DNA from: Candidatus Uhrbacteria bacterium | Lineage (GTDB): Bacteria; Patescibacteriota; Patescibacteriia; JACRJV01 | Reading direction: 5' to 3' | DNA length: 64,000 nt | NCBI GenBank assembly: GCA_016215325.1 | Contig: JACRJV010000027.1 | Span: 16,090 to 80,089 of the forward strand | Part shown: positions 294-58,514 of the stretch, one piece after another | Layout of the letters: every line of letters starts with the position of its first letter | Position numbering within the stretch: position 1 is the first letter of the stretch | The notes under the pieces: model-generated | Database searches by the model: none | What the model was told of the DNA's origin: nothing | What the model saw: only the letters and a program-made list of their open reading frames with translations | Translations under genes and position numbers: made by a program

Positions 294-2135
294 TCAGTCC
301 ATGATTTGTTTGACCATATAGGTTCCTTGGAGTTCGTAGCCGAGTTTTCGATAGTACTCGCGGACCCCAACGCCAGCGATCACGGTGACTTTTAGGATGC
401 CGTGTTCTTTGACGATATCTTCTGCTTTTTTCATGAGTTGCCGTCCTAGTCCGATGTGTTGCACATGCCCGTCCTCTGATTCATGATTTATAATTCCTGA
501 TTCCAGTCGGACAAGTTGCCCGTAGGTGTGGAGTTCGCGGATAAATGCGCAGTCGCGTATTTCGGGAAGGAGTTCGTACAATTGTTTCTTGCTCACTGGT
601 TCTTGTTCACTGTTTGTGGGTATCCGCAATCGGCAGAAGGCATACACCACTTCGCGATCTTCACTTTCGAAACTCAAAAAATATTCTTTGCCGTCACTCG
701 CTTCGTATTCTTCGACAAAGGGTTCAGTACGGTCTATACCCTGAACCCTATACCCCATACCTTTGTGATGACCAACTTCTCGGCACCGTAAACACTGGCA
801 TGTTAATCCGCGCTCCCTCATGATCTTTTGTACAGTTTCGCGTAAGTTTGTCACCGCATTGCCAGCAGCGATGTGTTGGGACGGAATATCGCGAATCAAG
901 CGTGAGATCCGGCAGTAGCGCGGAATAATTTGTGATTTGATCGTGATGAGCGTTTCGATAAGATCGTTGTCAGAGTACGGAGTGTACTTCCCGCTCTTCC
1001 ACCATTGGTAGAGTTCGGCCGAAGGCGTCACCACGCACGGGTAAATTTTGACCATGTCCGGACGGAATCGAGGGTCATCAAAGAGGAGTCGAAACATCTC
1101 AATATCCTTTTGAGCTGTTGCGCCTGGCAATTGCGGCATCATGTGAAGATCAACTTTGAAGCCAGCTTCGCGCAAGAGGGCTATGGCATGGGCAATACTG
1201 GCCACATCATGTCCGCGTTTAATCAACGTGAGGATGTCATCATCAATCGCTTGAGCGCCCAACTCCACCCGCGTGCACCCGAGCACTCGGAGTTGCCGCA
1301 CCTCGGCTTCGTTGATCCAGTCGGGTCGTGTTTCGAGGGTGAGCCCGATAATGCGGTGGGAGGCTGTTTCGTTCAAGTGTTGTTCCGATAGGACTTCTTC
1401 CTCTGTCGATTCTCCCGTGGCCCACCTTCCCTTTTTGTTGTAGGTCTCGACGAGTGCACGGTCGCCTTGGTTGAGTTGTTCGACATCCGAATACTGTTGA
1501 GAAGCATAATGCGAATATGCGAATGTATTCGAATACAACGAATTTGTTGTATTTGCATCAATTTGCATATTCGCATTATGATATTCGTTTGCGGCGCGAT
1601 AGCATTCTTTCAAAAACCACCGTTGGTACGCCTTGGGATACGCGCTCCAGGTGCCCCCTTTTACGATGAGTTCGATTTTGTCCGTTGGGTGGCCATTGCC
1701 CTCAAGCACCGCTAGTCGGCGAACCATTTGCTCGTACGGGTCAAAATTAAGGCGCAGTGCGCGTTGGGCGGCAGGCTCTGTTTCGATGTAACTTTTGGGC
1801 ATGCGTACTTCGGTGGGGCAATAGACGCATTGGCCCGGACACGCGTAGGGTTTGACCAGTACCGTGATGATCGCCACTCCGGAAAGGGTGCGTACTTCTC
1901 GTACGCGCAGGAGGCGCTCCAACGATGCGAGACCCGATCGTTCGGGCATCGAACGGATCCCATTCAAGAGTTGTTGATTGCTGATGATCCCGACTGCAAA
2001 TTCTTTTGCGACTCTCCGTTTCCATAACGAAAGCTGCCCAATAGTTTTTGGTTGAGTTTTGAGTAAATCTGCGATAAGCTCTGGAGGAAGCGCCATAGTA
2101 TTTATGCAGTCTATCAGAGATACTGAAATACTCAA
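294..2135 (-). CDS. elp3: Elp3-like tRNA uridine(34) acetyltransferase: radical SAM domain plus C-terminal GNAT domain, with an in-frame low-complexity insertion
   Basis: Radical SAM motif CPGQCVYCP; C-terminal GNAT motif QHIGLGRQLM; length 613 aa; alternative start at M14 (about 2096). Confidence 0.85.
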   Translation of the reverse strand: MSISVSLIDCINTMALPPELIADLLKTQPKTIGQLSLWKRRVAKEFAVGIISNQQLLNGIRSMPERSGLASLERLLRVREVRTLSGVAIITVLVKPYACPGQCVYCPTEVRMPKSYIETEPAAQRALRLNFDPYEQMVRRLAVLEGNGHPTDKIELIVKGGTWSAYPKAYQRWFLKECYRAANEYHNANMQIDANTTNSLYSNTFAYSHYASQQYSDVEQLNQGDRALVETYNKKGRWATGESTEEEVLSEQHLNETASHRIIGLTLETRPDWINEAEVRQLRVLGCTRVELGAQAIDDDILTLIKRGHDVASIAHAIALLREAGFKVDLHMMPQLPGATAQKDIEMFRLLFDDPRFRPDMVKIYPCVVTPSAELYQWWKSGKYTPYSDNDLIETLITIKSQIIPRYCRISRLIRDIPSQHIAAGNAVTNLRETVQKIMRERGLTCQCLRCREVGHHKGMGYRVQGIDRTEPFVEEYEASDGKEYFLSFESEDREVVYAFCRLRIPTNSEQEPVSKKQLYELLPEIRDCAFIRELHTYGQLVRLESGIINHESEDGHVQHIGLGRQLMKKAEDIVKEHGILKVTVIAGVGVREYYRKLGYELQGTYMVKQIMD

Positions 2136-3974: not shown

Positions 3975-5364
3975 TCCCGCAATCTTTAAGGCATACGACA
4001 TCCGTGGGGTTGTCCCAAGCCAACTCAATGAAGAGATTGCCTATGCCATTGGTCGAGCTTTTGTCGTGTGGCTTGCGGGGCAGAGGGATCCGGCACCAAC
4101 GATTGTTGTTGCTCGTGATGGGCGGATTTCCGGACCATCATTATTCGAGGCGGTCAAACAAGGGCTCGCTGATCAAGGCGCATCCGTCATCGATGTGGGG
4201 GTTCTGGCATCAGAGCAGTTTTATTTCGCATGCGCCTATGTTGGTGCGCCAGGAGTGACGGTGACCGCCAGTCACAACCCCAAAGAGTATAATGGGATGA
4301 AGTTTGTAAAAAAAATTCCGTTCTTCTTGAGTGGGGACCAGGGCATTCAGGAATTACGAACATTGGTGGAGCAGAGCCAATGGCCGGAGGTGAGTAAGAA
4401 AGGCACCGTGCGCACAGAAGACATCCGGTCGCTGTATGTCGAAAAATTGTTTTCGATAATTCCGACCTCCGACCTCCGACCTCCGACTTCTCGGCCCCAA
4501 CCTCCGACAGTAGTGATCGATACTGCCAACGGCGTCGCAGGCCCGATTATCACCGATATTGCATCAGCGCTGCCCGTTACCGTCCGACATTTGTTTGCGG
4601 ATGTTGATGGCGCGTTCCCCAATCACCCTGCCGATCCGTTGCGTCCCGAGAATCGGATAGCGGCACAACAAGCGATCCACAACCACAAGGCACAGGCCGG
4701 ATTTTTGTTTGATGGCGACGGCGATCGATGTTTTGTGCTCGACGAAAACGGCGAGCTCGTCCCCAATGAATTTTTGGGAACTCTTTTTGCCCAGGATCTC
4801 CTGTCAGCGCATCCGGGAGCAACATTTATCTACGATGTGCGCAGCTCTTGGGCATTCCCGCGCGTTGTCGAAGCGGCCGGTGGGAAGCCGTTCATGAACC
4901 GCGTTGGGCACGCGTATATCAAACCCCGAATGATGGAGGAAGGTGCGGTCTATGGCATGGAAGTTTCAGGACACCATTACTTTAAAGATTTTTTCTGGTG
5001 TGATTCAGGGGTATTGCCCATGCTCTATACCCTCAAAATAATGAGTAAGACTGGTAAGTCTTTGTCGGAACTGGTAGCCCCCTTGCGTCAGCAATATCAT
5101 TTGAGCGGAGAGTTGAATTATGCTGTCCATGATGCGCCGGGGATCTTAAAGCGGCTCAAAGAGAAATTGGCGGATGCGCCAAAGAAATACGAACTCGATG
5201 GCGTTTCGTTTGAATACCCCGATTGGCATTGTAATGTGCGCAGTTCCAATACCGAACCCTTGTTGCGGTTGAATTTGGAATCCATGGTGAGTAAAGAGCA
5301 TATGGAGGAGAGAAAGAAGGAGATGGAATCAATTATCCTAGAACCTATTACCTCGTCATTATGA
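3964..5364 (+). CDS. Phosphoglucomutase/phosphomannomutase (alpha-D-phosphohexomutase)
   Basis: Active-site motif TASHNPKEYNG and Mg-binding motif FDGDGDR. Confidence 0.9.
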   Translation: MSIDPAIFKAYDIRGVVPSQLNEEIAYAIGRAFVVWLAGQRDPAPTIVVARDGRISGPSLFEAVKQGLADQGASVIDVGVLASEQFYFACAYVGAPGVTVTASHNPKEYNGMKFVKKIPFFLSGDQGIQELRTLVEQSQWPEVSKKGTVRTEDIRSLYVEKLFSIIPTSDLRPPTSRPQPPTVVIDTANGVAGPIITDIASALPVTVRHLFADVDGAFPNHPADPLRPENRIAAQQAIHNHKAQAGFLFDGDGDRCFVLDENGELVPNEFLGTLFAQDLLSAHPGATFIYDVRSSWAFPRVVEAAGGKPFMNRVGHAYIKPRMMEEGAVYGMEVSGHHYFKDFFWCDSGVLPMLYTLKIMSKTGKSLSELVAPLRQQYHLSGELNYAVHDAPGILKRLKEKLADAPKKYELDGVSFEYPDWHCNVRSSNTEPLLRLNLESMVSKEHMEERKKEMESIILEPITSSL

Positions 5365-6164
5365 TCGGCGTATTCGATTCTGGCATCGGCGGCCTCACCG
5401 TCGTCAAAGAAATCACCAAGCAGCTGCCGGGCATGCCAGTCTTATATTTGGGCGATACGGCCCGTACGCCCTATGGCAACAAGAGCCCCGAGACAATTGG
5501 GCAGTATGCACTCCAAGATGCAAGGTTTCTGATCGATCACGGCGCTACCGTGATCGTCGTTGCCTGTAATTCAGCCTCGTCGGTGGCTTCCAAAATTCTA
5601 AATTCTGAATTCGACAATCCAGTGTTTGAGGTGATCACGCCCGCCGCGCGACGTGCCGCAACGCTCACAAAGAAAAAACGTGTTGGAGTGATCGGCACAC
5701 GTGCAACGATTGGTAGTCGTGCCTACGAACAAGCAATACATGCGGTTGACGATCGTGTCAGTGTCATGGGTCAGGCGTGCCCACTGTTTGTCCCACTTAT
5801 TGAAGAAGGTTGGGCCAAGAAAGGGGAGACCACCCGGATTGTAAAATTGAGTCTTCAAGGCCTTAAAACCAAAAACATCGACACCCTGATTTTAGGCTGC
5901 ACGCATTACCCGATTATTCGCGACCTCATCCATGCCAAAATCGGAAAGCGGGTAACATTGGTAGACCCGGCTGAAGAGGTGGTGAAAGATCTGCGACAGT
6001 ATCTTGATGCACATCAGGCAGTGGCACAGTCATTGCGTTCCGCTGCAGACCATCGGTTTATGGTCACCGACGTCACGGAACATTTCCAATCTATTGCCCA
6101 GAGTTGGCTTAAGCGGAGTGTTCGGTTGGAGAAAGTGACATTCGGCGAAGGCCCAGGGGTATGA
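5361..6164 (+). CDS. murI: Glutamate racemase
   Basis: N-terminal GVFDSGIGGLTV, VVACNSAS and LGCTHYP motifs; 4-nt overlap with upstream and downstream genes. Confidence 0.9.
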   Translation: MIGVFDSGIGGLTVVKEITKQLPGMPVLYLGDTARTPYGNKSPETIGQYALQDARFLIDHGATVIVVACNSASSVASKILNSEFDNPVFEVITPAARRAATLTKKKRVGVIGTRATIGSRAYEQAIHAVDDRVSVMGQACPLFVPLIEEGWAKKGETTRIVKLSLQGLKTKNIDTLILGCTHYPIIRDLIHAKIGKRVTLVDPAEEVVKDLRQYLDAHQAVAQSLRSAADHRFMVTDVTEHFQSIAQSWLKRSVRLEKVTFGEGPGV

Positions 6165-6940
6165 ATGTTGTCCAAGCAAGTATCCTCGGTCTTGTTGAGG
6201 GGGTAACTGAATTCCTCCCGGTCTCTTCGACCGGGCATTTGATTTTGGCGAGCCGTTTTCTTGGCATCGTCCAGGATGAATTTGTCAAAAGCTTCGAGAT
6301 TATCATCCAGCTCGGCGCCATACTTGCGGTGGGGGTATTATATGCGCCCCGGTTTTGGTCACAACGGAGGCTCTTGCTGCCGGTGATCGTTGGATTTCTG
6401 CCCACGGCGGTGATCGGCCTCGTATTTTACAAGCTGGTCAAAACGTATCTATTAGGCAATACAATGGTGGTTGTCGCCTCGTTGGCGATTGGTGGCGTCG
6501 TGATGATTGTGGTGGAGGGCTGGCTGCCCAAGCACTTCGTGCGCGTTCGCGCGACGCCGGAGTCCATCAGTGTGCGGGATGCGGTGCTCATCGGAATATT
6601 CCAATCGATCGCGATCGTTCCAGGCGTTTCGCGTTCTGCGGCCACGATTATCGGCGGATTGTTGTTGGGCATTGAACGCAAGACTGCTGTTGAATTTTCT
6701 TTTCTGTTGGCCATCCCCACCATGGTGGCGGCCACTGCCTTAGATCTTTTCAAAAATCCGCAGATATTTTCCGGGGGAGATGCGGGAGTGCTTGCCGTTG
6801 GATTTATTTTTTCATTTATCACAGCGCTATTGAGCATTCGATGGCTCTTGGGGTATGTAAAACATCATACCTTCACCGCATTTGGGCTCTATCGGATTAC
6901 CCTGGCAGCGTTTGTTGCAGGTGTCATGTTGTGGTCATAG
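6161..6940 (+). CDS. uppP: Undecaprenyl-diphosphatase
   Basis: BacA/UppP motifs VSSTGHL and SRSAATIIGGLLLG; polytopic membrane protein. Confidence 0.9.
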   Translation: MNVVQASILGLVEGVTEFLPVSSTGHLILASRFLGIVQDEFVKSFEIIIQLGAILAVGVLYAPRFWSQRRLLLPVIVGFLPTAVIGLVFYKLVKTYLLGNTMVVVASLAIGGVVMIVVEGWLPKHFVRVRATPESISVRDAVLIGIFQSIAIVPGVSRSAATIIGGLLLGIERKTAVEFSFLLAIPTMVAATALDLFKNPQIFSGGDAGVLAVGFIFSFITALLSIRWLLGYVKHHTFTAFGLYRITLAAFVAGVMLWS

Positions 6941-7037
6941 TGCAGTCGTAGCAACGACGAGATTGTAAGGAAAGCAATCCTCCTGCGTCAACTGTCTTTA
7001 CCTTGGCAACGGCGCGCCCCTTTTTGAGCGTTTCCGC

Positions 7038-7056
7038 GAATACCATTGAGTATCTA
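7038..7056 (+). promoter_or_regulatory. Conserved 19-nt leader motif GAATACCATTGAGTATCTA, copy 1, abutting the start codon of the first GAF-ANTAR gene
   Basis: An identical 19-mer occurs at about 11247-11265 upstream of the paralogous gene. Confidence 0.55.
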
Positions 7057-7796
7057 TGCCACCAATCAACCGGGTATCGCGTGCCCATCCTGCGGGATGG
7101 TACGCAGAGCTTGATGTTCTTTACCAAGTGACCGAGATCATTGGCTCTCATCATGATTTGGATTTCATTTTCCAGCGGTTGACTGCGCTCATCGGAGAGA
7201 TCACAGAGTCTGATGCGTGCCTCTTGTTCGTGCGCATGGGGGATCATCTTGTCCTGCGGGCATCGCAGCGTGAGTACCACAGCATCGTTGGTCGACTCAA
7301 CGTCGCCGTCGGCCAGGGAATTACCGGTTGGGTTGCGCGGCATGGGGAGCCGGTGGTATTGAGCAATCGGGCATCCCACGACCCGCGGTTCCACCATGTG
7401 AGCGAAGTGCCGGACCACCAGTTTGAAGCGTTCACAGCGTTACCATTTTTTTTCCGCAGCACTGTTATTGGGGTCGTGAATATTTATCATGAACGCCGCT
7501 GGCATTGCCCGGAGCATATCCTCCATCTGCTGATGGTGATTGGCCGGCAAGTGGGTGCCGCGATCGAACATGCCCGCCAGTTGGAAGAGCGCAAGACGCT
7601 CCAAAGCGTGATCGCAACCCGAAAACAGGTTGATCGGGCGACGAAATTTTTATCCCACACCCTAAAAATGACAACGGAGCAAGCGTATGGTGTTCTTCTG
7701 TTGCAGAGCCGGAAAACCGGCCGCACTATCAAAGAATTGGCGAGAGCCTATGCTCTGGCCGGCCGGCAACAGACGTCAGTTCTTGATCGTTCGTGA
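7056..7796 (+). CDS. GAF-ANTAR RNA-binding antitermination regulator
   Basis: N-terminal GAF-like domain; C-terminal ANTAR-like helix region (QAYGVLLLQSRKTGRTIKELARAYA); paralog at 11278. Confidence 0.75.
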   Translation: MPPINRVSRAHPAGWYAELDVLYQVTEIIGSHHDLDFIFQRLTALIGEITESDACLLFVRMGDHLVLRASQREYHSIVGRLNVAVGQGITGWVARHGEPVVLSNRASHDPRFHHVSEVPDHQFEAFTALPFFFRSTVIGVVNIYHERRWHCPEHILHLLMVIGRQVGAAIEHARQLEERKTLQSVIATRKQVDRATKFLSHTLKMTTEQAYGVLLLQSRKTGRTIKELARAYALAGRQQTSVLDRS

Positions 7797-7835
7797 GTAT
7801 TACTCTCTCGCCATTTTTGTGTTATAGTCAGAACA

Positions 7836-8225
7836 TTGGCATCGTTTTCTATTTGTATGCTCGACCAAAACGACCTGCAACAAATCAAAGAGATCGTCTT
7901 GGAGTCCGAGAAACGGACTACGTCTCATATTATTGCCGCTGCGGGCGAAATGGTTGAGCAGCAAATATTGCCGAGGCTGGATCATCTAGAGCAAGAACTG
8001 GAACGTCTGCGAAAAGATGTTACGCGCCTGGAAAGTCAAATGGTCACCAAAGAATACTTGGATCGCAAATTCGCCGATGAATTTTCCGATTTTTATCAGC
8101 GACTGAAGCGCGAGTGGTGGAGTAAGGATGTGCAGTGGAAACAGCGTGTCATCACTATTTTACAAAACGCAAAAATCGCCAGTGGTGAGGATCTCCAAGA
8201 ACTCAAATCGTTGATTGGCGTGTAA
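7836..8225 (+). CDS. Hypothetical coiled-coil protein; paralog of 59462..59860
   Basis: MLDQNDLQQIKEIV / ESQMVTKEYLDRK matches MLDSNDLKLIGQEV / EATMVTKDYLDEK in the paralog; likely true start at M8 (about 7857). Confidence 0.6.
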   Translation: MASFSICMLDQNDLQQIKEIVLESEKRTTSHIIAAAGEMVEQQILPRLDHLEQELERLRKDVTRLESQMVTKEYLDRKFADEFSDFYQRLKREWWSKDVQWKQRVITILQNAKIASGEDLQELKSLIGV

Positions 8226-8293
8226 GAGTAGTATTGTCCATACGTCTACTATAAAATTGAGCCGCAAAGGGCGTTCCCCTTGCCGATGGCCAT

Positions 8294-11191
8294 TTGGCTT
8301 TTTCTTTTTATTTTATGATTCGCAATGTTTTTAGGGTAGCAATGGCCAGCGGGCTGATTCTGGGGAGTCTTTTTATGACTGGTCCGCTGAATGCTCAAAC
8401 TACGGTGGACAACGCGCAATACATGAGCGGCCCATTGCCACTGAGCACCACTCTTCATACCGGCGAAGCGCTCGGACCCCTTGTGGTTTCAGTAAAAAAT
8501 ACAGGGACTAGTGCTTGGCCTCAATATAATGGCGCGGGGTCAGAAGGTATCGTGATTGGCCCTTGGCCCGATGACAATCCGAGCAATAGAGCATTTGATG
8601 CTGGGGCAACTGTACATCGAAATATTTATCATAGTGTCGTTCCAGGAGAAACGGTCAGTATTGATTTACTTCAGACACTGGGAATGGTTGCGCCACAAAT
8701 TCCTGGCACCTATAACCTGCAATGGAAGATGTATCGCTACAATGATGCGACCAGAGCGAATGTGCCTTTTGGAGATCCGATCCCAACACAACCGCTCATC
8801 ATTACGGTTGTGGCAAACTATGACCCAACATTCAGCAGCATCGCCGCTCCAACGGCCCCAATACCCCTGAATCAAAATTTCTCTCTTTCATGGACTGTAC
8901 GTGACGCAGATTCCGATCGTCTGGAGTGGAGTGTCGATTGGGGGGATGGAACACCTGTATCGCACCCACAAGGAGGGTATATTTGTCAGGCTCGTGTTGA
9001 TTGCCCAGGGTCGCAGTCATTTTCATCGAACCATACATGGACGACGGCCGGAACCTATTCGGTCATCATCAAAGTCACGGATGGGAAGGGGGGAACGGCA
9101 AGGGATACTGTATCGGTGACCGTCGCTGCGCCGACGCTCCAAGACAACGCACAACTTTTAGAAGTGGGGTTTGATTCCTCTGGTAAGTCTGTATTTAAGC
9201 CAGGAGAAACGCCGAATGTATTTCTGAAATTCAAAAACACCGGAACAAGTGACTGGGAAATTGGGAAAGTATTTTTATATCCATTACCTTATAACGATGC
9301 CGATAATCGGGCATGGCAAGGCGGGGGAACCGTCGGTCGACCAGTTCCGCTTTGGGTTTCCCCCGGAGGCACTGCTGGTTTTAATCTTGGTGGGAATCTG
9401 GGTATTACCGCTCCACAGACACCCGGGACGTACAAACTTCAATGGAGGCTCTATCGAAAAATAGATCCGAATCGCGATGAAGTGACACCGTTTGGCGACG
9501 TAGCCCCCTCCAGTCCGCTCATGTGGACCGTCGCCGCTCCAACGGTTACACTCAATGCCCAGCCGGCTGGCGGTACATTCCCTACAAAAACCATTTTTGC
9601 TCCGGGAGAAATCGTGGAACCAAGGATTATCATGAGAAATACCGGCACACAGAATTGGCTCCCATGCAATCAGTTGCTGCTGGAGATATCCAAAGCGAAT
9701 TTAAATATCGGTGGACAGGCGAATGATTCGGATTGCTCCAGTGTCTATGCCAAGCCCGGAGAAGAGTATGCGTTTCAATCGCTCATGTCGTTGCCGACAA
9801 TGCAAGGGACGTACACTTATCAATGGCAGATGGCTAGTCGCGACCCCGGGCAAACCATCGACCAGGCTCGGAGATTCGGATCCGTGACATCACCATGGAC
9901 CGTGACGATTGCCGAGCCCACACCAAACAACCCCCCGGTCATTCAAGGCATCACTGCTCCGAGTGTGTTGAGCGTGCGCGAAGCAGGTACATGGAAGATC
10001 AGGGCCTATGATCCAGAAGGCAAACCCTTGAGCTACTACGCCACGTGGGGAGATGAGATGGTTGGGTCGCAACCCGCAATGACTTCAGCTCCGTCGTATG
10101 AGAAAACGCAAAACATCACATTCACGCACTACTACACCCAGCCCGGTGTGTATGAACCTCGGTTTACCGTGGTTGACAGCGCGAATCAGAAGGCCGATAC
10201 CAGCGCGAGTGTGACCGTTAACGAGTCAACGCGGCCGCCGGAACCAGTGCCAACGGGCTCCATGAAAGTTACCGTGGTTAACGGTGACATTCAGTGTATC
10301 AAAGCCCCTTGCGGCGTGCTCAAGAATGCCAAGGTCGCGGTATATGCTCTCAATGGCGACAGCCTTGGGGACTTTATTGGTAGTTCTGATACGAGCGGAG
10401 GCGCTGCGGGATTTTATGAAATTCCGGTCGGTCGGTATGTGGCTTATGCGAGCGCTCCAAACTTCAACGAGGCAAAGGGATTGTTTACCATCCGTCCCCA
10501 CCAAGGAGACTACCTCACCATTCGATTGTCCGCGGTCAGAGAAATATTAACCTGCCCGCCGGATTGCCCGGATGTTATCGATGATGTGTTTGAGCCGGAA
10601 TTTCCCAATGGCTCTCTTATTCAGCTCCAGCGCACGAAAGGTGTCTATTACATCGAGAATGGTCAAAAGCGTCCGATCCGCTCGCGCGCAGTGTTCGATG
10701 CCCGTGGGTTTGATATGAGCGACGTGATTGTGGTGGACAAGAAAGATTTTGATCGCTATCCCACAGGCCCAGAACTCACCGCATCCTCGACAACCACAAC
10801 AACGACGACGGGAGCGCTCCAAGAAGGATGGCTCGTGAAGGCATTGAATGATAAAGCAGTCTATCGGATCGAAAGTGGGAAACGTCGGCCGTTCCTCTCG
10901 GGCAGTGTTTTCGAGGCTCGAGGATATTATTGGAGTGATATTGTGGTGGTCAACCCTTCTACGCTCGAGGCATACTCGTTGGGAGACACCATTACTTACA
11001 GTCGCCTCGGCGATGGGTTCTTGATTAAATCGCCCCGTCACCCCGAGGTGTTTTGGACAGAAAATGGCCAAAAGCGCCATATCGCTAACGAATCCGTCTT
11101 TGCGGCGCACGCCTTCCGCTGGCAAGATATCCATGTCATCAGTGAAGATGAGGTTGCCAGCTATCCAACCGGCTCGGACATGGACCGATAA
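8294..11191 (+). CDS. Large secreted multi-repeat protein: signal peptide, three N-terminal beta-sandwich repeats (NTGT...W motif), two PKD-like domains, a carboxypeptidase-regulatory-like domain, and three C-terminal repeats of about 45 aa
   Basis: Hydrophobic N-terminus; WGDGTP PKD signatures twice; triple repeat G-x-KR-x-I-x-S-x-x-VF-x-A-x-GF-x-W-SD-I-x-VV...YP-x-G at the C-terminus. Confidence 0.7.
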   Translation: MAFSFYFMIRNVFRVAMASGLILGSLFMTGPLNAQTTVDNAQYMSGPLPLSTTLHTGEALGPLVVSVKNTGTSAWPQYNGAGSEGIVIGPWPDDNPSNRAFDAGATVHRNIYHSVVPGETVSIDLLQTLGMVAPQIPGTYNLQWKMYRYNDATRANVPFGDPIPTQPLIITVVANYDPTFSSIAAPTAPIPLNQNFSLSWTVRDADSDRLEWSVDWGDGTPVSHPQGGYICQARVDCPGSQSFSSNHTWTTAGTYSVIIKVTDGKGGTARDTVSVTVAAPTLQDNAQLLEVGFDSSGKSVFKPGETPNVFLKFKNTGTSDWEIGKVFLYPLPYNDADNRAWQGGGTVGRPVPLWVSPGGTAGFNLGGNLGITAPQTPGTYKLQWRLYRKIDPNRDEVTPFGDVAPSSPLMWTVAAPTVTLNAQPAGGTFPTKTIFAPGEIVEPRIIMRNTGTQNWLPCNQLLLEISKANLNIGGQANDSDCSSVYAKPGEEYAFQSLMSLPTMQGTYTYQWQMASRDPGQTIDQARRFGSVTSPWTVTIAEPTPNNPPVIQGITAPSVLSVREAGTWKIRAYDPEGKPLSYYATWGDEMVGSQPAMTSAPSYEKTQNITFTHYYTQPGVYEPRFTVVDSANQKADTSASVTVNESTRPPEPVPTGSMKVTVVNGDIQCIKAPCGVLKNAKVAVYALNGDSLGDFIGSSDTSGGAAGFYEIPVGRYVAYASAPNFNEAKGLFTIRPHQGDYLTIRLSAVREILTCPPDCPDVIDDVFEPEFPNGSLIQLQRTKGVYYIENGQKRPIRSRAVFDARGFDMSDVIVVDKKDFDRYPTGPELTASSTTTTTTTGALQEGWLVKALNDKAVYRIESGKRRPFLSGSVFEARGYYWSDIVVVNPSTLEAYSLGDTITYSRLGDGFLIKSPRHPEVFWTENGQKRHIANESVFAAHAFRWQDIHVISEDEVASYPTGSDMDR

Positions 11192-11207
11192 CATCAGTCA
11201 ATACACT

Positions 11208-11236
11208 TTGACCCCCCTGCGGTCACATGATATAGT
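11208..11236 (+). promoter_or_regulatory. Sigma70-like promoter: TTGACC, 17-nt spacer, TATAGT
   Basis: Hexamers and spacing read directly from the sequence; the 19-nt leader motif follows immediately. Confidence 0.5.
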
Positions 11237-11246
11237 CAAGGGAGAG

Positions 11247-11265
11247 GAATACCATTGAGTATCTA
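11247..11265 (+). promoter_or_regulatory. Conserved 19-nt leader motif GAATACCATTGAGTATCTA, copy 2, embedded in a GGGAGAGG...CTCTCCC hairpin
   Basis: Identical to the motif at 7038-7056; flanked by a 7-bp inverted repeat. Confidence 0.55.
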
Positions 11266-11277
11266 ACTCTCCCTACT

Positions 11278-12027
11278 ATGGCACTAACCGGCGCTCGCAC
11301 TCTTGCACGCCGCATGGTCGGCGTTTCTGCAAAACATCCGGCAGGACAGTACGACGAACTCGACATTCTTTACCGAATTAGTGATACGATTAGCACCAAT
11401 CTTGACCTTGATGACGTATTTTTACGCATCATTAAACTGGTCGAAATGGTGACAAAGGCAGATGCATGTCACCTTTTCCTGTTGATGGATAATGAATTGG
11501 TATTGCGCGCTTCGAGCAAATCGCGGAGTAAACTCATTGGCAAGCTAAAATTGAAACTCGGGGAGGGCGTGGCTGGTTGGGCCGCGGTCAATCAAGAGAT
11601 GGTCGAGATTCCCGAAAAAGCGTACGAGGATCCGCGTTATCGATTTGTGCAAGAATTGCCGGGGGACCAATATGAAGCGCTTTTGTCGGCCCCGCTATTT
11701 TTCCGTGATCGAGTGGTTGGGGTTATCAATATTCGCAGTAAGCAGCCGCGCCATTACCCCGATCATATTTGCAATCTTTTACGCGTGATTGGCCGCCAAG
11801 TCGGGGGTGCGATCGAAAACGCGCGGATGCTGGAAGGAACCAAGAGTTTCCGCAGCGTGGTGGCTACCAGGAAATTTATTGACCGAGCAAAAGAGTTGAT
11901 TTCGCGGAAGATGCATATTTCTTCTGACACCGCCTACGAAGTCCTTTTGCGCGAGAGTATGAAAAGCGGCAAGAGCGTGAAGGAAGTTGCCGAAGCCATG
12001 ATGATTGCCGATGAGATCGAAAAGTAG
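11278..12027 (+). CDS. GAF-ANTAR RNA-binding antitermination regulator (paralog)
   Basis: Aligns along its whole length with 7056..7796 (HPAGxYxELDxLY..., ANTAR region TAYEVLLRESMKSGKSVKEVAEAM). Confidence 0.75.
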   Translation: MALTGARTLARRMVGVSAKHPAGQYDELDILYRISDTISTNLDLDDVFLRIIKLVEMVTKADACHLFLLMDNELVLRASSKSRSKLIGKLKLKLGEGVAGWAAVNQEMVEIPEKAYEDPRYRFVQELPGDQYEALLSAPLFFRDRVVGVINIRSKQPRHYPDHICNLLRVIGRQVGGAIENARMLEGTKSFRSVVATRKFIDRAKELISRKMHISSDTAYEVLLRESMKSGKSVKEVAEAMMIADEIEK

Positions 12028-12076: not shown

Positions 12077-12115
12077 AAAACCCGAAGCTTATGGCTTAGG
12101 GTTTTTCTGTTTGGA
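12077..12115. terminator. Bidirectional rho-independent terminator between the convergent GAF-ANTAR and trpS genes
   Basis: AAAACCCGAAGC...GCTTAGGGTTTTT hairpin flanked by an A-tract and a T-tract. Confidence 0.6.
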
Positions 12116-26025: not shown

Positions 26026-26274
26026 AAATACATAACGCGAATACCGTTCAGCCGCAACGGCTAGTCGGGCATGCGAATACCGCGAATAATTTTTGTAGAA
26101 ATAGTATACCATCATGAGTCGTGCTTGACAAGGGAGGGGAATGGCCGGTAGGGTTGGGGGAGAATCATGTTTAGAGCGAGTCCATCGCCGCCCCACACGG
26201 GTGGCGATTGTTTTTTCCGGTGGCTCAACAGCGACCGGAGATCGGATCACCCGCACAGGGTGAGAGGAGCGGTC

Positions 26275-31127: not shown

Positions 31128-31766
31128 ATGATTCTCTCTCAACTCTTTAGCAACCCGGCGCTGGTCATCGTTTGGATCACGGCCATCCTGTATGCCATGA
31201 CCGTGCACGAATTTAGCCATGCATTGGCGGCGAAGCTCCTGGGCGATGATACGCCCGAACGCGAAGGGCGGTTGAGTTTGAACCCTGCGGCCCATGTCGA
31301 TATGATGGGGCTCGTGCTGTTGGTGGTCGCTGGGTTTGGGTGGGGTAGGCCCGTGCAATTCAACGCTTCTCGGTTGCGTAACCCGCGACTGGATCCTGCG
31401 CTCGTGGGCTTGGCCGGGCCATTCGCTAATCTCTTGAGCGTCGTTGTCTTTGGGTTGCTTACTCGCCTTGCCATCAATGCAAATTATGCACCAGAGAATC
31501 TGATGGTGCAGTTTTTCCTCTACATTGCGTTGTTGAATACAACGCTCATGGTATTTAATTTGTTACCAGTGCCCCCGCTGGATGGGTCGCATTTACTCCT
31601 TGCGTTGTTGCCCGAGCGGTTCTGGAGGCTTAAAATTTGGCTCGTGACCCGCGGCGCCCTGTGGTTGATGGGGCTTGTGCTTATCGACATCGTTACCGGC
31701 GGCCTCCTTTTAGGCGGGATCCTCTCGTTCTTCCATAATCTTGTATTCAAGTTTGTCCTGTCTTGA
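31128..31766 (+). CDS. Site-2-protease-family (M50) zinc metalloprotease, membrane-embedded
   Basis: HEFSHA (HExxH) inside a transmembrane helix; LDGSHLL motif. Confidence 0.8.
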   Translation: MILSQLFSNPALVIVWITAILYAMTVHEFSHALAAKLLGDDTPEREGRLSLNPAAHVDMMGLVLLVVAGFGWGRPVQFNASRLRNPRLDPALVGLAGPFANLLSVVVFGLLTRLAINANYAPENLMVQFFLYIALLNTTLMVFNLLPVPPLDGSHLLLALLPERFWRLKIWLVTRGALWLMGLVLIDIVTGGLLLGGILSFFHNLVFKFVLS

Positions 31767-57958: not shown

Positions 57959-57960
57959 AA

Positions 57961-57993
57961 GGTTCCAGGTTCCAGGTTCCAGGTTCCAGGTTC
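57961..57993. repeat. Heptanucleotide tandem repeat GGTTCCA (4.7 copies) immediately upstream of the rplA start codon
   Basis: GGTTCCAGGTTCCAGGTTCCAGGTTCCAGGTTC. Confidence 0.75.
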
Positions 57994-58479: not shown

Positions 58480-58485
58480 ACGTTC

Positions 58486-58514
58486 AGTGAACAGTGAACA
58501 GTGAACAGTGAACA
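58486..58514. repeat. Heptanucleotide tandem repeat AGTGAAC (about 4 copies) upstream of rplK, nested in a 12-bp hairpin
   Basis: CAGTGAACAGTGAACAGTGAACAGTGAACA; the mRNA-sense hairpin is AACAGTGAACAA...TTGTTCACTGTT. Confidence 0.7.

Follow-up and report, generated by a model that had tools for sequence, protein, structure and literature searches.

A conserved leader motif shared by two GAF-ANTAR regulator genes of Candidatus Uhrbacteria, a candidate RNA operator

Introduction

Two genes for GAF-ANTAR regulators stand close together in a genome of Candidatus Uhrbacteria, a member of the Candidate Phyla Radiation (CPR, or Patescibacteria), and the same sequence of 19 nucleotides (nt) precedes both. 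What does this sequence do, and for which genes? The stretch of DNA analysed here, called the window, comprises 64 kb of one contig. The order of genes at the locus is murI, uppP, GAF-ANTAR paralog 1, a small gene, a gene for a secreted protein with PKD and immunoglobulin-like (Ig) domains, GAF-ANTAR paralog 2 and, on the opposite strand, trpS. A preliminary description of the locus, pointing to the dual-hairpin RNA leaders that ANTAR proteins bind, had suggested that the shared sequence serves autoregulation and possibly a ligand-controlled (GAF) expression of the secreted protein. The window was compared with about 90 kb of related Uhrbacteria loci, designated L001/L002, L003, L006, L072, L073 and L074.

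Occurrence of the shared sequence

The 19-mer GAATACCATTGAGTATCTA has two matches in the window when up to three mismatches are allowed; both are exact and lie on the + strand, at 7038-7056 and 11247-11265. Two matches were reached in none of 100 shuffled sequences. Each copy is found directly 5′ of a gene encoding both a GAF and an ANTAR domain. The final base of copy 1 is the A of the start codon of paralog 1 (7056..7796, + strand, 246 amino acids, aa), and copy 2 ends 12 nt 5′ of the start codon of paralog 2 (11278..12027, + strand, 249 aa). Both regulators are identical to NCBI proteins annotated 'GAF and ANTAR domain-containing protein [Candidatus Uhrbacteria bacterium]'. The whole locus, including both 19-mers, is also present on a 5.5-kb contig of an independent Logan assembly (L075), which excludes an assembly artefact.

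The two proteins, which had been described as aligning over their full length, match over 229 residues with 45% identity (E 2e-73). The 19-mer is the sole exact repeat of at least 13 nt that is common to both loci, and with coding sequences this far apart a recent duplication is ruled out.

A 23-nt RNA representing the candidate operator reads GGAAUACCAUUGAGUAUCUAA. A covariance model (R1) built from six motif sites gave 30.1 bits (E 5.6e-05) for copy 1 and 29.2 bits for copy 2. It found no further copy in the window, where the next match had 13.4 bits and an E value above 1, and in the related loci it matched only 5′ of GAF-ANTAR genes. The many unrelated sites that would have deprived the 19-mer of its meaning were thus not seen in either set of sequences. 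An Rfam scan of the window returned a tRNA alone at the gathering score and no family that matches the 19-mer; permissive Rfam scans of 6900-8400 and 11150-11400 gave chance-level matches only. Since the motif is kept 5′ of orthologous genes, as described below, and is absent elsewhere in the sequence searched, it is a selected and gene-specific element. It is most likely a cis-regulatory leader element of one Uhrbacteria clade.

Other repeated words were noticed elsewhere in the window. At 26036-26120 the sequence GAATACCG occurs twice, 36 nt apart, followed by TATACCATCATG, and words of the ATACC type are found in the leader of the open reading frame (ORF) at 31128. These are probably unrelated to the 19-mer, because R1 gives the sites no score.

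Conservation in orthologous leaders

Paralog 2 is the conserved one of the two genes, with orthologues of 83, 66, 66, 65 and 54% identity. They adjoin a convergent trpS and lie downstream of uppP or of a gene for a PKD protein. Single-copy Uhrbacteria orthologues (65-83% identity) carry the variant GAATACC(A)TT(A)GAGTATC, placed between a conserved extended -10 element (TGnTAnnnT) and the ATG, with diverging flanks. From the -10 hexamer to the ATG the leaders read TACAGT-tttatag-GAATACCTTGAGTATCAAAATAT-ATG in L003, TATGCT-ttcgataaagat-GAATACCATTAGAGTATCAAT-ATG in L006, TATGCT-ctcaatagagat-GAATACCATTAGAGTATCGAT-ATG in L074, TATACT-cttttcaacaagc-CAATACTATTAGAGTACGTGT-ATG in L072 and TACACT-ctggccaaggat-GAATACCATTAGACTCTTTGT-ATG in L001/L002.

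Two pairs of leaders show how the motif compares with its surroundings. Between L006 and L074 all 18 motif bases are identical, against 4 differences in the 12 bases that separate the motif from the -10. L003, the 83% orthologue, keeps the -35 and -10 hexamers of paralog 2 (TTGACC-17-TACAGT); its 19-mer differs by one deletion and one substitution, and its promoter spacer matches at 5 of 17 positions. The flanks change and the motif stays constant, which is the mark of a phylogenetic footprint. Conservation is strongest in the primary sequence AATACYnTT..GA. The ATAC and GTAT half-sites are separated by 6 nt in the window, 5 nt in L003 and 7 nt in L006 and L074, and the GAGTATC end lies 2-14 nt from the ATG in these three loci and in both window copies. 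In L072 and L001, where its 3′ half has diverged, the motif nevertheless begins 21 nt 5′ of the ATG.

The footprint also bears on a rival explanation of the two 19-mers, namely that they are a recombination scar without a regulatory role: direct repeats around a 4.2-kb insert or duplication that comprises paralog 1, the small gene and the PKD gene. The repeats are indeed direct and flank exactly that segment, and a deletion between them would yield uppP-GAF-ANTAR-trpS, the order of L006, L072 and L074. However, single-copy orthologues bear the motif at the same place relative to the start codon, which identifies it as a resident leader element and not a junction. The two coding sequences, at their level of identity, share no other stretch, and the genes of the segment encode GAF-ANTAR, small and PKD proteins with no integrase or transposase among them. 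A scar is therefore highly improbable.

The motif has a limited range. In L073, a 56% orthologue, the motif is absent, the -10 is placed 8 nt from the ATG (L073 200-240) and the mRNA looks leaderless. More distant GAF-ANTAR genes, comprising homologues at 37-43% identity and double-GAF homologues, are without the motif. A metagenome scan with the clade alignment produced no close orthologues beyond those already compared, and a scan of genome contigs with paralog 2 returned only distant Chloroflexota-type GAF proteins. For paralog 1 there was no orthologue above 46% identity among 5.8 billion proteins; its best database matches, from other phyla, are about 40% identical. In a neighbour-joining tree it falls within the Uhrbacteria clade, on a long branch, and its identity to the individual members is 42-46%.

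Promoter, leader and RNA structure

The promoter that had been read before copy 2 was found again at 11208..11236 (+ strand): TTGACC-17-TATAGT, with a TG extension and 10 of 12 consensus matches. No TGnTAnnnT promoter was found within 120 nt upstream of copy 1, and paralog 1 has no recognisable promoter. In the copies with a promoter the motif starts 7, 10 or 13 nt after the -10 hexamer. Its end is 0-14 nt before the AUG in all copies, copy 1 overlapping the start codon.

This arrangement brings in the main rival explanation, a serious one. The motif may be a DNA operator just 3′ of the promoter, in which case a DNA-binding repressor or activator would recognise GAATACC...GAGTATC and control the transcription of both paralogs. 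A start 7-13 nt after the -10 in every promoter-bearing copy is a typical position for an operator, the motif is an imperfect inverted repeat, and the emphasis of conservation on primary sequence is what such a site would have. The spacing of the half-sites, however, is not fixed but 5, 6 or 7 bp; a hairpin loop tolerates such variation, whereas a rigid dimeric DNA operator would not. L001, moreover, has lost the right half. The distance to the -10 varies while the motif remains within 14 nt of the ATG, which favours RNA over DNA. In copy 1 there is no recognisable promoter to regulate and the motif lies on the start codon, a placement that fits a site acting at the level of RNA. A DNA operator also requires the postulate of an extra factor dedicated to these genes. 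On this evidence it is unlikely, though it deserves to be taken seriously.

As RNA, the motif can form a mini-hairpin with a 4-bp stem, AUAC/GUAU. The loop has 5-7 nt and includes UU(A)GA in every case: it reads CAUUGA in both copies of the window, and CUUGA (5 nt) and CAUUAGA (7 nt) in orthologues. Only copy 2 is stably structured. The hairpin previously described around it was recovered at 11239..11274 (+ strand), with an outer stem AGGGAGAG/CUCUCCCU and the inner stem AUAC/GUAU; this extended GGGAGAG...CUCUCCC hairpin has a folding energy of -18.2 kcal/mol and a z score of -2.29 (RNAfold). It owes its stability to the GGGAGAG/CUCUCCC arms on either side of the motif. Orthologues do not keep these arms, and part of the 5′ one may precede the start of transcription.

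The motif-bearing leaders are short and have no Shine-Dalgarno sequence, and such sequences are nearly absent upstream of ORF starts across the window. It is conceivable that the motif is a leader element independent of ANTAR, concerned with ribosome loading or mRNA stability, or a site for another RNA-binding factor, an RNase or a small RNA. The scarcity of Shine-Dalgarno sequences, together with the many leaders that bear gene-specific elements right before the ATG, accords with this, as does the stem-loop near the predicted 5′ end of the copy 2 transcript, a common arrangement for stabilisers. Yet the elements in other leaders are tandem heptamers that vary from gene to gene, whereas the motif is single, conserved and restricted to regulator genes, and the L073 orthologue manages without it. 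Its confinement to these two paralogs and to their orthologues argues for a specific partner that acts in trans, and an ANTAR-independent role is unlikely.

Several other readings of the motif were considered and rejected. In-frame starts inside it (ATT, TTG) were discarded since ATT is in frame for copy 2 only, and an upstream start for copy 1 is precluded by a TGA stop in frame 5′ of its ATG. TAGAGT/TAGACT at -12 to -7 in L001, L006 and L072 might be a second -10 within the motif, from which a leaderless mRNA would start; it has no clade-typical TG extension, and TTGAGT, the corresponding sequence in the window and in L003, does not fit. An antisense promoter within the motif would suit L006 alone, and a CsrA-type GGA site 5′ of the motif is not conserved.

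Two features of other leaders in this genome were observed along the way. An extended -10 (TGnTAnnnT) lies 8-17 nt before the ATG of the ORFs at 294-2096 (minus strand), 13257, 23153 and 31806 (rpsL), and such leaders suggest that leaderless or near-leaderless mRNAs are frequent. Tandem repeats with a period of 7, sometimes 8 or 14, are present in 3-5 copies, the unit differing between genes (GGAACCT, TTCACTG, CTTACTG, GAAAATT, nnATACC and others). Examples in the window are at 57960-57993, 58485-58514, 56562-581, 56024-054, 32808-838, 36482-510, 31088-121 and 54398-423, and in L001 at 679-740 and 13725-758. Although about 80% of the window is coding, 21 of 31 arrays are intergenic; 13 lie within 80 nt upstream of starts, and 8 reach to within 1-9 nt of the ATG. 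Among the genes concerned are rplA, rplK, dUTPase, thyX, tmk, dnaE and an M50 peptidase. A literature search on heptamer leader repeats in CPR bacteria found no description of them.

The GAF-ANTAR proteins

The domain assignments of the preliminary description are borne out by Pfam, in which both paralogs exceed the curated cut-offs for GAF and ANTAR. Paralog 1 scores 66.9 bits for GAF and 34.2 bits for ANTAR (PF03861, cut-off 27.3 bits), and paralog 2 scores 58.9 and 44.2 bits, so the C-terminal regions do match the ANTAR profile. An AlphaFold2 (AF2) model of paralog 2, with a predicted local distance difference test (pLDDT) score of 85, has a GAF fold, a 50-residue helix and two terminal helices. 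Helices 162-212, 216-230 and 234-248 correspond to the ANTAR three-helix unit, entered by way of a long helix of the coiled-coil type. The best Foldseek matches of the GAF domain are the GAF domains of PtsP (E 4.7e-13; for 3ci6, TMt 0.89 and root-mean-square deviation 1.7 Å), and a phmmer match of the sensor domain to PtsP GAF has an E value of 3e-16.

The positions at which EutV contacts its RNA can be compared with both proteins, using the published numbering, which equals the chain index minus two. EutV R142, K143, K147, K149, Y164 and M172 correspond to R198, K199, R203, K205, Y220 and M228 of paralog 2. Paralog 1 keeps the residues at the positions of R142, K143, K147 and Y164, and has Thr for K149 and Arg for M172. 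The Arg-Lys pair is invariant among 58 single-GAF homologues, and the Lys149 equivalent is kept in 57, the exception being paralog 1. The Arg at the Met172 position of paralog 1 is not unusual, because it is as frequent there as Met in the family.

The clade that bears the motif departs from the family at two positions. The family's AKG has become AKE or AKD (AKE in paralog 2, ATK in paralog 1), and Glu160 is replaced by Ser, Ala, Val or Thr, with Ser in paralog 2. The ANTAR domain of L073, whose gene has no motif, keeps the canonical AKG. These positions are near the bound G, and the changes could go with an altered loop specificity.

A possible translational operator

The targets described for ANTAR proteins are pairs of mini-hairpins with hexaloops in which A occupies position 1 and G position 4; the second of the pair overlaps a terminator (PMC3369931). 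In the structure of EutV with RNA the minimal site is a single hexaloop, with G4 stacked on Tyr164 (PMC8934654). Mycobacterial ANTAR-target RNAs overlap ORF starts and repress translation, and most mycobacterial ANTAR domains co-occur with GAF (bioRxiv 10.1101/660928). No RNA target is assigned to a GAF-ANTAR protein in PMC3369931 or in bioRxiv 10.1101/660928.

The Uhrbacteria motif is not a canonical dual-hexaloop ANTAR target, the kind invoked in the preliminary description: there is a single weak hairpin, its loop lacks A1 and G4, and no terminator accompanies it. Scanning of 6941-7055, 7797-7857, 8226-8315 and 11192-11277, all intergenic, brought up no dual hexaloop with A1 and G4. Features of known targets are nonetheless present. 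The stem, short like that of known targets (3 bp or more), has 4 bp, with AC/GU closing pairs, as in eutP P1, ACAC[AnnGnn]GUGU, for which the closing pairs are inferred from the numbering of mutants (PMC3369931); and, as in the actinobacterial type, the motif is on or near the start codon, in the region of ribosome loading.

The reading preferred here is that the ANTAR domain binds the motif as an RNA operator made of one hairpin, with translational autoregulation of both paralogs as the outcome. It is put forward tentatively, as quite possible though short of probable. A GAF-ANTAR dimer would bind the motif hairpin when its PtsP-like GAF domain is in the right ligand state, and the bound dimer would occupy the 30S-loading region of the leader and repress the synthesis of both paralogs. 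On mRNAs without a Shine-Dalgarno sequence, 30S loading should be blocked by any protein that sits on the last 30 nt or so before the AUG. Since the operators are identical, control of both genes would fall jointly to the paralog that binds RNA, most likely paralog 2. The absence of a terminator overlapping the motif means that the mechanism cannot be antitermination.

Support comes from both the protein and the RNA. The residues that hold the loop and the flipped-out G in EutV are kept in paralog 2 (R198, K199, R203, K205, Y220 and M228), though with Ser at the position of Glu160. The 4-bp mini-hairpin resembles eutP P1, and a single hexaloop is now taken to be the minimal ANTAR site. The mycobacterial targets that lie on ORF starts and repress translation lend weight to a translational effect, and the substitutions at AKG and Glu160, which are beside the RNA, fit an altered loop specificity. 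Autoregulation thus remains a reasonable reading of a conserved, gene-specific motif with a predicted RNA-binding protein encoded next to it, as the preliminary description had it, although not by canonical ANTAR targeting.

A number of observations weigh against an RNA operator. The motif hairpin alone, at -0.4 kcal/mol, is marginal, it is missing from the minimum free energy (MFE) fold of most orthologue leaders, and its stem has no covarying pair among seven sequences from about five lineages; a thermodynamically negligible hairpin without covariation favours a DNA operator. In the predicted transcripts the motif spans roughly +1 to +25, where DNA operators, too, are classically found. Neither copy has a second hexaloop hairpin beside it, and there is no terminator-like site between the motif and either GAF-ANTAR ORF. 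The loop CAUUGA has A2 and G5 in place of A1 and G4, and orthologue loops have 5 or 7 nt. The leader of L073 has no motif, and the 3′ half of that of L001 has diverged. The search for the motif was confined to the window and the related loci. In 2012 it was stated that no RNA target was known for any GAF-ANTAR protein (PMC3369931).

The more specific proposal, that the motif is the cognate RNA operator of the GAF-ANTAR protein and defines a non-canonical class with a single hairpin, a UU(A)GA loop and a site at the start codon of mRNAs that have no Shine-Dalgarno sequence or next to no leader, is rather doubtful. If true, it would be the first target assigned to the very common GAF-ANTAR architecture, two paralogs of a CPR bacterium would regulate their own and each other's translation under the control of a ligand, and the changes from AKG to AKE/D and from Glu160 to Ser/Ala at the positions that read the G would be the matching change in the protein. 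Were the motif RNA bound, the ANTAR recognition code would extend beyond dual AnnGnn hexaloops, and there would be an instance of translational control in a CPR bacterium that has few regulators and no Shine-Dalgarno sequences. If it is not bound by ANTAR, the motif is still a clean case of a conserved operator in an uncultured lineage. Few as the sequences are and uncultured as the organisms are, the motif offers a concrete candidate RNA for a common architecture.

The secreted PKD protein and neighbouring genes

The preliminary description had placed a secreted protein of 965 aa with PKD domains and three C-terminal repeats between the regulators. The domains, the repeats and a signal-like N-terminus are there, the last two read directly from the translation; the length is 958 aa from ATG 8315 (8315..11191, + strand), or 949 aa from ATG 8342. 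The predicted start of this gene is one of these two codons and not TTG 8294, and that of the small gene (7857..8225, + strand, 122 aa) is most likely ATG 7857 and not TTG 7836. Both corrections rest on the start of the L001 orthologue (1554 for the small gene) and on gene calls on the independent contig L075, where the small protein likewise has 122 aa. Pfam matches of the large protein are N_BRCA1_IG (NBR1-type Ig, 59.9 bits) and PKD (49.7 bits); the C-terminal repeats, of about 60 aa, have no Pfam match, and the small helical protein has none above the cut-off.

The bracketing of the secreted protein by the two regulators is real in this genome and peculiar to it. In relatives the small gene is paired with the PKD gene, and the place of the pair changes: in L001/L002 it is found 5′ of uppP, with a second PKD paralogue in front of the regulator, and in L006, L072 and L074 no PKD gene adjoins the regulator. 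The orders observed are murI, small gene, PKD, bacA, PKD2, regulator in L001 (1554-7913) and murI, bacA, regulator in L006 (3711-5282) and L074, as compared with 5361-11191 of the window. The uppP/PKD/regulator region appears to be a local hotspot of rearrangement.

The leaders of the small gene and the PKD gene contain no copy of the motif by R1 and no dual hexaloop, the canonical target that the preliminary description had envisaged upstream of them. The small gene is preceded by an extended -10 promoter-like site of its own, TGTTATAGT (7820..7828, + strand), which was read directly and has the TGnTAnnnT pattern seen in other leaders of the genome. Because the PKD leader has neither element and the cassette lies elsewhere or is missing in relatives, control of the adjacent adhesin-like secreted protein by the GAF-ANTAR regulators, with or without a GAF ligand, is not supported by these sequences.

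The interval between the small gene and the PKD gene holds a hairpin with a U-run after it (8262..8310, + strand), which has a terminator-like site at 8282-8298 and is conserved in L001/L002. It reads AAAGGG/CCCCUU in the window and AAAGAGC/GCUCUUU in L001 (1985-2030), inside a GCCG...UGGC helix, and its U-run, which differs by 1 nt between two assemblies, extends to the PKD start codon. When the intergenic region is aligned with L001/L002, 3 of 17 predicted pairs are changed on both sides, one of them (A-U to G-C) in this hairpin and the other two in an upstream helix at about 8233-8252. The folding energy is no better than that of shuffled sequences. The hairpin has no hexaloops and no ANTAR features, and its appearance is that of a terminator or attenuator.

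Paralog 2 and trpS, which are convergent, are separated by a hairpin at 12077..12105, AAAACCCGAAGC-UUAUG-GCUUAGGGUUUU on direct reading, which belongs to neither strand in particular. It is an imperfect 11-bp hairpin with A-runs and U-runs on its flanks and is probably a bidirectional terminator; a consensus terminator scan missed it because of one stem mismatch. In L006 and L072 the GAF-ANTAR gene and trpS overlap by 12 nt in place of an intergenic hairpin.

The C-terminal repeats of the PKD protein (window 10590-11188) have a consensus of roughly G-x-L-I/V-K...V-Y-x-I-E-x-G-x-K-R-x-I...V-F...W-x-D-I-x-V-V/I. The same repeat ends the gene upstream of GAF-ANTAR in L003 (1-99) and L073 (3-188), and it may be a module for anchoring at the cell surface.

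Comparison with known systems

The systems of EutV, NasR and AmiR are the obvious reference. Paralog 2 shares with them an ANTAR output with the loop-contacting Arg, Lys, Lys, Tyr and Met, though it has Ser in place of Glu160, and the motif shares with their targets a 4-bp mini-hairpin with AC/GU closing pairs, a 6-nt loop (in this genome) and a place in the leader of the regulated gene. They differ in that the motif is one hairpin, with a CAUUGA loop that has 5-7 nt in orthologues, and in the sensor, which is REC, NIT or pseudo-REC there and GAF here. Actinobacterial targets of the Rv1626/PdtaR type (bioRxiv 10.1101/660928) resemble the motif in their place on or beside the start codon of mRNAs that have hardly any leader or none, and a block of translation initiation is the outcome proposed for both. 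Theirs are dual stem-loops with A1/G4 hexaloops on metabolic genes, whereas the Uhrbacteria site is single, non-canonical and on the regulator's own genes.

The coat-protein operator hairpin of MS2/R17, the k-turn in the archaeal L7Ae leader and the leaders of ribosomal-protein genes are autoregulatory translational operators. Like the motif, they place a small hairpin at or near the start codon of the gene for the binding protein or a co-regulated gene. They belong to different protein families and have different RNA shapes, and in those systems the product binds its own mRNA, while the site proposed here is a candidate drawn from sequence; this comparison is based partly on PMC6298567.

For the sensor, the closest structural and sequence match is the N-terminal GAF domain of PtsP (EI-Ntr), with the difference that the output is enzyme I of the phosphotransferase system (PTS) there and ANTAR here. 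The GAF domain of E. coli PtsP senses glutamine and 2-oxoglutarate.

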